Made by a program: the position numbers and the translations under genes. From Escherichia coli (GTDB taxonomy: Bacteria; Pseudomonadota; Gammaproteobacteria; Enterobacterales; Enterobacteriaceae), in the NCBI RefSeq assembly GCF_003334355.1, contig NZ_QOWP01000015.1: 64,000 bases of DNA; one strand, written 5' to 3'. Each line of letters opens with the position of its first letter. Within the stretch, counting starts at the first letter, position 1. Shown piece after piece: positions 49,023-50,503 of the stretch. The notes under the pieces were generated by a model, which saw only the letters and a list, made by a program, of their open reading frames with translations, searched no databases and was not told where the DNA came from.

Positions 49023-49184
49023 ATGGAAATTTCGTTTTCACCCAAACGTCTTGTTGTTGCTGTCGCCGCCGCTCTTCCTCTCATGGCCAGCGCAGCAGAT
49101 ACCCCGTCAACTGCCACCGCACGCAAAGGCTTTGCCGGATACGATCACCCAAACCAGTATCCACAGAACGCTGCAATTTATTGA
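49023..49184 (+). pseudogene. aslA: aslA (arylsulfatase) N-terminal remnant, about 53 codons
   Basis: ATG-initiated frame encoding signal peptide [27 protein letters not shown]...; frame ends after about 53 codons at the REP/terminator; too little space before aslB for an intact sulfatase. Confidence 0.6.
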
Positions 49185-49198
49185 ATTTGCACGATCAT

Positions 49199-49236
49199 GT
49201 AGGCCGGATAAGGCGTTTACGCCGCATCCGGCAATC
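49199..49236. repeat. REP element between aslA remnant and aslB
   Basis: gtaggccggataaggcgtttacgccgcatccggc REP core. Confidence 0.7.
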
Positions 49237-49244
49237 AACCGCAG

Positions 49245-49269
49245 GCGGCCACAAAATGGCCGCTTTTTT
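49245..49269 (+). terminator. Intrinsic terminator (aslA 3' end), abutting the aslB stop
   Basis: gcggcca-caaaa-tggccgc hairpin followed by T6. Confidence 0.55.
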
Positions 49270-50503
49270 ACTTACTCACCACCAGCAAATGCGCATGCAT
49301 AATGTCACTGGCCGGGCGACCGTGCGCCAGCAAATCAGCCATTGCTTTAAGATATGGCGGTAGATGGCGGAAATAACGCTGATACCCGGCACACAAATAA
49401 TTCAGCCCCGGTTTGCCTCTGGCATCGAGCATGAAGCGGTGTTTCGGGCAGCCTCCCCAGCACGCTTTTAACACGTTACAACTGCGACACTGCGCCGGTA
49501 ATTGCTTAAATTTATCTTCACCAAACGCCTGCTGTTGCGGGGAATCGATCATTTCTGCAATTGTTTGCTGGTGCATATTCCCCAGCCGATATTGTGGATA
49601 AACATAGTGATCGCAGGCGTAAACGTCGCCGTTGTGCTCAACAATCACCGAGCGCCCACAGGTTGGCTGATGATGGCAAACCGCACCCGGCGCACCGACA
49701 AAATTGGCAAACGCCCATTCGATATTCATCACGAAAATCTTGCCGACGTCGCGTTTAATCCAGTGGTCGAATATCGCCACCAGAAATTCACCGAACTCCT
49801 CGGGGCGCACCGACCATTCCGTTAGCTCACCCTGAATATCACCAGGCGCATGCAATTTCAGTCCTTCGCGGGCAGCCATTTCATCAGCCAGGCGCTCGAC
49901 CACCGGAATAAACTGGATGAATTCCACTCCCGCATCGCACAAAAAATCATATACCTGCAACGGTTGCTGCGCGCTGGTGCGATTAACGCAGACCAGCACG
50001 TTATAGTCGACATGATGTTTTTGCAGCAGCGTCAGGGCACGCATCACCAGCTTATGCGTGGGTCTGCCACCTTTAGTCACGCGATATTGATTGTGGATCT
50101 CAGGCGGACCATCCAGCGATAAACCAACAAGAAAATGATGCTCCGCGAGAAACGCGCACCATTCGTCATCCAGCAGCACGCCGTTAGTCTGGAAGCTGTT
50201 ACTTATCTTCCTGCCAGCACCATATTTCGCCTGTAGCGCTACGGCACGGCGGTAAAACTCCAGCCCGAGTAGCGTTGGTTCGCCGCCCTGCCAGGTAAAA
50301 GCCACTTCGTTTTGCAGTTCGCTGGCGGCGATATAGTGACGGATATACGCTTCCAGCGTGTCATCGTCCATATGCGTGACTGGCTTTTCGCGGTAAAGGG
50401 ATTGTTTTTCGAGATAAAAACAGTAGTCACAGTTCAGATTACAATCGGAACCACTCGGTTTCGCCATCACATGAAAAGCACGCGTTGGAACCTGTTGCAG
50501 CAT
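49268..50503 (-). CDS. aslB: Anaerobic sulfatase-maturating enzyme homolog AslB (radical SAM/SPASM)
   Basis: Track ORF to 50533; recognised N-terminus MLQQVPTRAFHVMAKPSGSDCNLNCDYC at ATG 50503 (411 aa); CX3CX2C radical-SAM motif and C-terminal Cys clusters. Confidence 0.9.
   Translation of the reverse strand: MLQQVPTRAFHVMAKPSGSDCNLNCDYCFYLEKQSLYREKPVTHMDDDTLEAYIRHYIAASELQNEVAFTWQGGEPTLLGLEFYRRAVALQAKYGAGRKISNSFQTNGVLLDDEWCAFLAEHHFLVGLSLDGPPEIHNQYRVTKGGRPTHKLVMRALTLLQKHHVDYNVLVCVNRTSAQQPLQVYDFLCDAGVEFIQFIPVVERLADEMAAREGLKLHAPGDIQGELTEWSVRPEEFGEFLVAIFDHWIKRDVGKIFVMNIEWAFANFVGAPGAVCHHQPTCGRSVIVEHNGDVYACDHYVYPQYRLGNMHQQTIAEMIDSPQQQAFGEDKFKQLPAQCRSCNVLKACWGGCPKHRFMLDARGKPGLNYLCAGYQRYFRHLPPYLKAMADLLAHGRPASDIMHAHLLVVSK

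Follow-up and report, generated by a model that had tools for sequence, protein, structure and literature searches.

The window analysed here is a stretch of 64,000 nucleotides of Escherichia coli DNA (RefSeq assembly GCF_003334355.1, contig NZ_QOWP01000015.1), and the features discussed below are collected in Table 1. An earlier note made from the letters of this DNA had assigned the arylsulfatase gene aslA to this place on the basis of synteny, and Rfam matches together with the comparison with K-12 bear this out: hemY, which ends at 48344 to the left of GlmZ, and GlmZ itself lie on one side, and aslB and four tRNA genes lie on the other. The genes for tRNA-Pro, Leu, His and Arg are annotated beside aslB in every reference locus that we read. 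In the position of aslA there is a frame of 53 codons that ends with a TGA at 49182-49184, as seen both in the list of open reading frames and in the sequence, and a ribosome-binding site, GGAG, is located 8 nt upstream of its ATG. A scan of the aslA upstream region found a single, weak match to the promoter consensus (48725-48752), which is a candidate promoter.

Table 1. Features of the aslA-aslB region, in positions of the window.
Feature	Position	Strand	Basis or remarks
GlmZ sRNA gene	48392-48598	-	Rfam RF00083, 218.4 bits versus gathering score 60, full-length; left synteny marker, outside the deletion
aslA upstream / 5' untranslated region, unchanged	48599-49022	+	817/817 nt identity to ETEC1720, hemY stop to breakpoint
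Kept aslA 5' end, codons 1-46 plus 2 nt	49023-49162	+	Signal peptide and first ~22 mature residues
Stub ORF, 53 aa	49023-49184	+	46 AslA codons, then PQNAAIY and stop from the former spacer
Deletion junction	49162-49163		Pairwise alignment and multiple alignment against eight intact loci, K-12 and ETEC1720 among them
Kept inner spacer, once part of a two-REP cluster (BIME)	49163-49198		Equals ETEC1720 spacer 3' of REP1
REP2 element GTAGGCCGGATAAGGCGTTTACGCCGCATCCGGCA	49199-49235	+	Core 49203-49232, 5 copies in the window (3 mismatches or fewer)
Terminator-like hairpin and T-run	49243-49269	+	Terminator scan; predicted to serve the aslA-direction transcript
aslB, anaerobic sulfatase-maturating radical-SAM/SPASM enzyme, intact	49268-50503	-	411 aa; TIGR03942, 519.1 bits
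tRNA cluster Pro-Leu-His-Arg	50653-51086	-	Four Rfam tRNA matches; right synteny marker

The ATG, the Sec signal peptide and the stop after some 53 codons that the earlier note had described are all present. In the N-terminus of the stub, inspection shows a basic n-region, then a hydrophobic core and the cleavage motif A-S-A. The first 46 residues of the stub agree with those of K-12 AslA at 45 positions, the only difference being F3I, which means that the reference protein begins with the same signal peptide. From the hemY stop to the breakpoint all 817 nt are identical to those of ETEC1720, a strain with an intact aslA, and therefore the stub is homologous to aslA and is no chance reading frame. 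Megablast matches to intact genomes end at position 49161, or at 49162 for the allele of strain Z1323CEC0015 that has CCG as codon 47. The seven residues at the C-terminus (PQNAAIY) are an out-of-frame reading of former spacer DNA.

The stub thus has the syntenic position and the N-terminal Sec signal peptide of AslA, but it has no sulfatase catalytic domain with the S/C-x-P-x-R motif from which formylglycine is made. In K-12 AslA the active-site motif is SSPTR, of the serine type (S-x-P-x-R), at residue 136, and the part of the stub derived from AslA ends at residue 46. A search of the 53-aa stub with the NCBIfam profiles matched no family. Because SSPTR lies beyond the truncation and no NCBIfam family is matched, we consider the locus a pseudogene remnant and not a functional member of the AslA family, and for a remnant that has no catalytic domain we predict from its sequence that AslA activity is lost. 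The stub is what a deletion has left of aslA, the gene of a periplasmic arylsulfatase of the serine type.

In K-12 the interval is made up of aslA (1,656 nt, 551 aa) and a 158-nt spacer, followed by aslB. Accordingly, the aslA start and the aslB stop are 1,814 bp apart in K-12 and 1,823 in ETEC1720, versus 245 bp in the window; a distance of about 250 bp is therefore not a property of the reference, where it is about 1.8 kb. Eight intact loci (K-12, ETEC1720, N18-04097, Z1323CEC0015, O55:H7, BL21, a B2 APEC strain and O145) were aligned with the window, and this placed the left breakpoint after 49161/49162, corresponding to nt 139/140 of aslA, and the right breakpoint before 49163. Compared with an intact allele that has the long spacer the net loss is 1,578 bp, consisting of aslA nt 141-1656 and 62 nt of spacer including the element REP1. 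The earlier estimate of roughly 1.5 kb was near this figure, and the alignments support the core of that reading, namely that aslA has been cut down to its signal-peptide 5' end next to an intact, convergent aslB. The junction reads ...CCAGTATCC/ACAGAACGC... (the slash marks the breakpoint), and TATCC/ACAGAAC was the same in all five deletion genomes that were read. In our best explanation, one ancient deletion of 1,578 bp took away all of aslA from codon 47 onwards, its stop included, and with it the 62 spacer nucleotides that came next and carried REP1. The upstream region, the ribosome-binding site and the signal-peptide codons were thereby joined, out of frame, to what was left of the spacer, with REP2 and the hairpin. 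Such a remnant would give at most a transcript of about 250 nt and a pre-peptide of 53 aa.

The REP element and the hairpin with a T-run abutting the aslB stop, both of which had been proposed earlier, were found in what remains of the spacer. The segment called REP2 is an imperfect palindrome of about 35 nt with a GTAG end and many intergenic copies: at 3 mismatches or fewer its core was observed five times in the window versus an expectation of none, a query containing REP2 matched a median of 27 places per genome, and the REP2 segment alone matches tens of places in every genome. The G+C-rich hairpin that follows has a 9-bp stem with six G-C pairs and a 5-nt loop and runs into TTTTTT, as in an intrinsic terminator, and termination is predicted on the plus strand; the hairpin overlaps the aslB stop codon at 49268-49270. 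It is also present in the intact alleles of ETEC1720, N18-04097 and O55:H7, and in K-12, BL21, the B2 strain and O145 it is found without 9 nt. Other REP-linked rearrangements were observed in the spacer of intact strains: a separate REP-to-REP deletion of 77 nt in Z1323CEC0015, and in O145 a REP cluster (BIME) whose inner segment is inverted. The REP-rich aslA-aslB spacer is an example of a rearrangement hotspot.

Codon 47 of aslA is CTG in seven of the eight intact alleles and CCG in Z1323CEC0015 alone, a strain whose flanks are B1-like. From a CCG parent the deletion is a blunt join, TATCC/ACAGAAC; a CTG parent would call for one extra, untemplated C. The alignments with the intact loci were searched for microhomology at the junction, as the earlier note had proposed, and showed none, whether the parent is taken to be CCG or CTG. 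On the right, the break falls 2-3 nt beyond the stem of REP1 (...TTATCCAGCCT/AC), at the foot of the lost REP hairpin. Moreover, codons 36-41 of aslA (CTTTGCCGGATACGAT) and the 5' arm of REP1 (CTTTGCCGGATGCGAT) are equal at 15 of 16 positions, and this repeat, with the consensus CTTTGCCGGAT[A/G]CGAT, precedes both breakpoints, starting 32 nt upstream of the left one and 38 nt upstream of the right one. When pairs of window positions separated by 1.0-2.2 kb were drawn at random and compared, with the match sought within 60 nt on either side of both positions, an equal or better match was obtained for one pair in 1,500.

The 16-nt repeat is out of register with the breakpoints by 5-6 nt, and for this reason plain slippage between the repeats fails to give the product. 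A slipped-strand deletion as the full explanation was rejected, given that the product keeps aslA-side sequence for 17 nt past the repeat, and so was an in-register switch at the shared TATC(C), which would leave AGCCT, absent from the product. A REP-associated transposase would cut at the CT just 5' of GTAG; the cut expected from such an enzyme is 2 nt from the observed breakpoint, and this idea is unsupported. Z1323CEC0015 was also considered as the direct parent and discarded, as its own 77-nt spacer deletion removes the sequence that forms the right side of the junction. The combination of a CCG codon 47 with the long spacer occurs in none of the eight intact alleles sampled, and the exact parent is therefore not among them. 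Most likely, to judge from the traces of one historical event, a single REP-associated illegitimate recombination made the deletion. Perhaps stalling at the hairpin or a REP-binding activity triggered the event, aided by the chance presence of a REP-like sequence in aslA.

An 80-nt probe centred on the junction matched, at a coverage of at least 80%, 1,729 of 5,426 complete E. coli genomes (32%); among the other genomes listed, the best match of the probe was to its aslA half alone. In every carrier that we opened, RefSeq/PGAP annotates the first 138 nt as a pseudogene, "arylsulfatase, incomplete, missing C-terminus". It has also been published that aslA is present in nearly all genomes of phylogroups A, B2, D, E, F and G and is missing from ST155, ST58 and ST156 (B1) and from ST410 (C) (PMC8844930). 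The earlier description of the locus as a strain-specific difference does not hold in view of the 1,729 genomes with the junction, the PGAP pseudogene and the published absence from B1 and ST410 strains: the aslA deletion is a lineage-level polymorphism that is common, annotated and already known. A literature search combining aslA, aslB and deletion returned nothing relevant, and no paper describing the junction itself was found in it. Modestly new here are the exact structure of the junction, the occurrence of a REP-like repeat at each breakpoint, and flanks whose mosaic composition indicates spread by recombination.

The gene is treated as invasion-associated in K1 strains, according to the accounts given in the citing papers (Hoffman et al. 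2000, as cited in PMC8844930 and PMC11879602), and in other genome surveys aslA appears as a variable virulence marker. As genome surveys routinely count aslA among virulence or invasion factors, it matters that its "absence" in strains of the B1/C type is one deletion allele with a 140-nt 5' fragment, from which it follows that presence/absence calls largely follow lineage and reflect independent gain or loss to a lesser degree.

The five deletion loci that were read are identical from the junction to aslB, and their flanks form four haplotypes. On both flanks TW10590 agrees with Z1323CEC0015, the intact strain of B1-like type, to which 2015C-3101 and RM9975 are close as well. NCTC 13148 has B1-type alleles from 48799 or further left up to 49757-49793, followed by another haplotype, which makes the recombination tract carrying the deletion at least 960 bp long in that strain. 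In the window the left flank is ETEC1720/K-12-like to at least 49048 (A at 49029, G at 49048), the sequence is of the B1 type from the junction to 49502 (A at 49307, T at 49502) with none of the 13 ETEC1720-specific differences, and it is K-12-like again from 49527. The B1-type alleles of the window are therefore confined between 49049-49162 and 49502-49527, a tract of about 340-480 bp, where "K-12-like" refers to the identity of the flanks, the phylogroup marker genes being outside the window. The C at junction position 49162 is the base of a CCG codon 47, which among the eight intact alleles is that of Z1323CEC0015. An aslB haplotype at least 99% identical to that of the window is carried by about 200 of the 1,729 genomes with the junction, most of the carriers being at about 97.3%, and none of the intact genomes sampled is more than 97.7% identical to it. 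Among complete genomes the nearest, such as 720632 and MLI023K1, align with the window over an uninterrupted 24.9 kb at 99.9%.

The deletion probably arose in a B1-type haplotype with a CCG codon 47 and became the majority form in B1/C lineages, after which homologous recombination carried it to other backgrounds, the K-12-like one of the window among them. The direction of transfer, from B1 to K-12-like, is read from a few SNPs in 13 sequences, and only two SNPs versus K-12 set the right end of the tract in the window. It was probably by homologous recombination that the deletion reached the window, and one junction on several flank haplotypes makes a small and clean case of a loss-of-function allele moving in this way.

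One junction on at least four flank haplotypes could also be expected if the same deletion had arisen several times at a REP-driven hotspot, with no single origin followed by spread, and the significant 15/16 repeat and the REP hairpin at the breakpoints, as well as an aslA-aslB spacer that is visibly unstable in other strains, are in line with this. However, the junction is blunt and out of register, with nothing to steer independent events to one nucleotide, and the identity of the five loci from the junction to aslB and the C at 49162, which is not templated by the CTG allele that the left-flank haplotype of the window has in intact strains, speak for common descent of the allele. In addition, K-12-like backgrounds carry the junction inside B1-type SNP tracts of differing length, the signature of imported DNA. 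Given a blunt junction that no microhomology could have guided, and donor-type SNPs that recurrence leaves unexplained, we regard independent recurrence as quite improbable. The suspicion that the short locus is an artefact of assembly or collapse in the window deserves practically no credence: REP elements can confuse short-read assemblers, but the junction is present in 1,729 independently finished genomes, and several genomes align with the window without a break over 24.9 kb at 99.9%.

It might further be asked whether the stub is kept as a small gene, giving a secreted pre-peptide of 53 aa (29 aa in the periplasm once signal peptidase has cleaved it) or a short regulatory transcript with its end at the terminator that was kept. 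Its upstream region, GGAG, ATG, Sec signal peptide with A-S-A, and hairpin with T-run are all intact, and its sequence is invariant across the five deletion loci read. Recent common descent nevertheless explains the invariance, and the haplotypes still vary at 49029 (F/I) and 49048; furthermore no protein family was matched, PGAP calls the locus a pseudogene, and the last seven residues are an accidental reading of spacer. A retained small gene appears very improbable on this evidence, still more so than recurrence.

The convergent gene aslB encodes a protein of 411 aa, the K-12 length, with no internal stop. It exceeds the cut-off of the equivalog profile TIGR03942 (519.1 bits versus 349.45), its residues 11-390 covering positions 1-362 of the 363 in the profile, and it carries the radical-SAM motif CX3CX2C at residue 21 and a SPASM domain (TIGR04085, residues 282-371, 66.9 bits versus a cut-off of 27). 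AslB thus scores as an anaerobic sulfatase-maturating enzyme, predicted to convert Ser or Cys to formylglycine. Two of the substitutions in the window, S362R and T209M, are absent from the 12 other loci read, and two more, P63L and V54I, are shared with NCTC 13148 alone. Stub and aslB DNA are contiguous in all 1,729 carriers at a coverage of at least 80%, a measure that leaves room for frameshifts or for insertion sequences of up to about 1.4 kb. Among the genomes sampled, the annotation shows an intact aslB in all but strain C9, whose copy is split by IS1; in KMi012 an IS1 lies inside the matched interval and aslB is still annotated. Lineage-specific changes in the aslB of deletion haplotypes are 6 non-synonymous to 3 synonymous, versus 7 to 26 between the intact K-12 and ETEC1720 genes (Fisher p = 0.016, with small numbers and no phylogenetic control). 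The non-synonymous excess and the IS1 copies in or next to aslB are a weak hint that the gene may be drifting under relaxed constraint rather than being maintained.

Since aslB is convergent to aslA, it is independent of the aslA promoter. It is repressed by H-NS, its promoter is bound directly by RcsB-P/GadE, and an aslB mutation slightly impairs acid resistance in an hns background (PMC2984483). The earlier note had aslB left without its cognate sulfatase. It was right that aslA is gone, but the claim was overstated, as the ydeM-ydeN pair, in which YdeN has a serine-type motif (SGPSR, compared with SSPTR in AslA), is present in 5,323 of 5,426 genomes (98%). From this frequency it follows that at least 94% of the deletion carriers keep another candidate substrate of AslB, and on sequence grounds aslB may not necessarily be substrate-less, YdeN being a candidate. 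The term orphan is weakened too by the regulation that aslB has of its own and by the mild acid-resistance phenotype reported for it (PMC2984483). The gene has survived the deletion as a separate convergent gene with its own promoter and regulators, and it may mature YdeN or serve acid resistance, or it may simply not have decayed yet. The fate of this radical-SAM maturase after the loss of its neighbour (YdeN, acid resistance or slow decay) is a modest question.

Taken together, we are confident in a joint explanation in which there was one deletion of aslA, associated with REP sequences, that originated in a B1-type background and spread by recombination, with aslB kept as a separate gene. 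A bolder proposal is that loss of aslA is no neutral decay and is favoured in some niches, the deletion having been passed on in short tracts to about one third of the genomes and aslB having been kept for a role that is independent of sulfatases or related to YdeN. We hold this to be unlikely, although less so than the rival readings weighed above; if it were true, a scored virulence and invasion marker would be a gene whose loss is adaptive and horizontally transmissible.

The closest known counterpart of the locus is the pseudogene C6H98_RS29705 of strain 2015C-3101, from B1/C-type E. coli, which shares with the window its position, the 138-nt fragment, the junction, and the REP element and terminator downstream. 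The window differs from it in its K-12/ETEC1720-like flanks, in F3I in the stub, and in an aslB that is about 97.3% identical to the common B1 form. With the intact K-12 locus (b3801/b3800) it has in common the order hemY, glmZ, aslA, aslB and proM-leuT-hisR-argX, the signal peptide, and a convergent aslB of 411 aa, but 505 of the 551 AslA codons, including those of SSPTR, and REP1 are missing from it.

REP sequences occur at the join points of chromosomal rearrangements, in what is known as REP/BIME-associated illegitimate recombination. The aslA deletion resembles these cases in having one breakpoint at the base of a REP hairpin and, close to each of the two breakpoints, a 15/16 repeat of REP-like sequence; in contrast to them, the left partner is a coding sequence that resembles a REP arm and the junction shares no bases. 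Finally, in the atsA/atsB-type pairs of Klebsiella a serine-type sulfatase (S-x-P-x-R) is encoded beside a radical-SAM/SPASM maturase. The aslA/aslB pair has the same adjoining arrangement of a serine-type sulfatase gene and a radical-SAM/SPASM maturase gene, although here the two genes are convergent and form no operon, and in the window the sulfatase partner has been deleted.

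The remnant of aslA is not one frozen sequence among the genomes that carry the deletion, because two positions within the stub vary. The third codon (49029) is ATT, encoding isoleucine, in the window, in strain C9 and in the intact alleles of ETEC1720 and N18-04097, and it is TTT, encoding phenylalanine, in K-12 and in the B1-type deletion carriers. Position 49048 of the stub is either G or T.

Across strains, the spacer between aslA and the convergent gene aslB (49163-49270 in the window) is a hotspot of REP-linked rearrangement. The locus alignment places a 77-nt REP-to-REP deletion in the spacer of Z1323CEC0015, and in O145 RM9873-C1 the REP cluster (BIME) of the spacer has an inverted inner segment and a different element as its first REP. 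In K-12, BL21, the B2 APEC strain and O145 the terminator hairpin is incomplete, being 9 nt short, and the stop codon of aslB is TAG rather than TAA. A repeat search of the window identified four further copies of the same type of REP as that at 49203-49232. The first two copies listed are spaced 99 nt apart and may constitute a two-REP cluster (BIME).

Further REP copies in the window, of the same type as the REP at 49203-49232
Feature	Coordinates	Strand	Source
REP copy	7640-7669	-	Repeat search of window
REP copy	7739-7768	-	Repeat search of window
REP copy	26595-26624	-	Repeat search of window
REP copy	34773-34802	-	Repeat search of window

Some deletion carriers also have IS1 copies inserted in the aslA-aslB locus. 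Strain C9 has one IS1 upstream of the stub and a second that cuts aslB into two pseudogene fragments (positions 2842-5244 of its locus extract, L005), and HZDC01 and KMi012 each have one IS1 within the matched interval.

Upstream of the locus, a subset of genomes (hits H34-H39) presents an insertion between hemY and glmZ, for example at 2916-3505 of the Z1323CEC0015 extract, L004. This insertion takes the place of the ~40 nt immediately downstream of the hemY stop and contains two annotated hypothetical proteins of 300 and 282 nt. The neighbouring hemX is 1,188 nt in the window (45958-47145), and 1,182, 1,206, 1,218, 1,230 or 1,236 nt elsewhere among the loci read, a variation between strains that suggests a repeat-number polymorphism within the gene.

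The aslB gene of the window carries two non-synonymous substitutions absent from the 12 other loci read, S362R (49418), in the region of the C-terminal SPASM domain, and T209M (49878). Two more, P63L (50316) and V54I (50344), are common, among the loci read, to NCTC 13148 only. Lineage-specific changes in aslB were 6 non-synonymous to 3 synonymous in the deletion haplotypes, versus 7 to 26 between intact alleles (Fisher p ~0.016).
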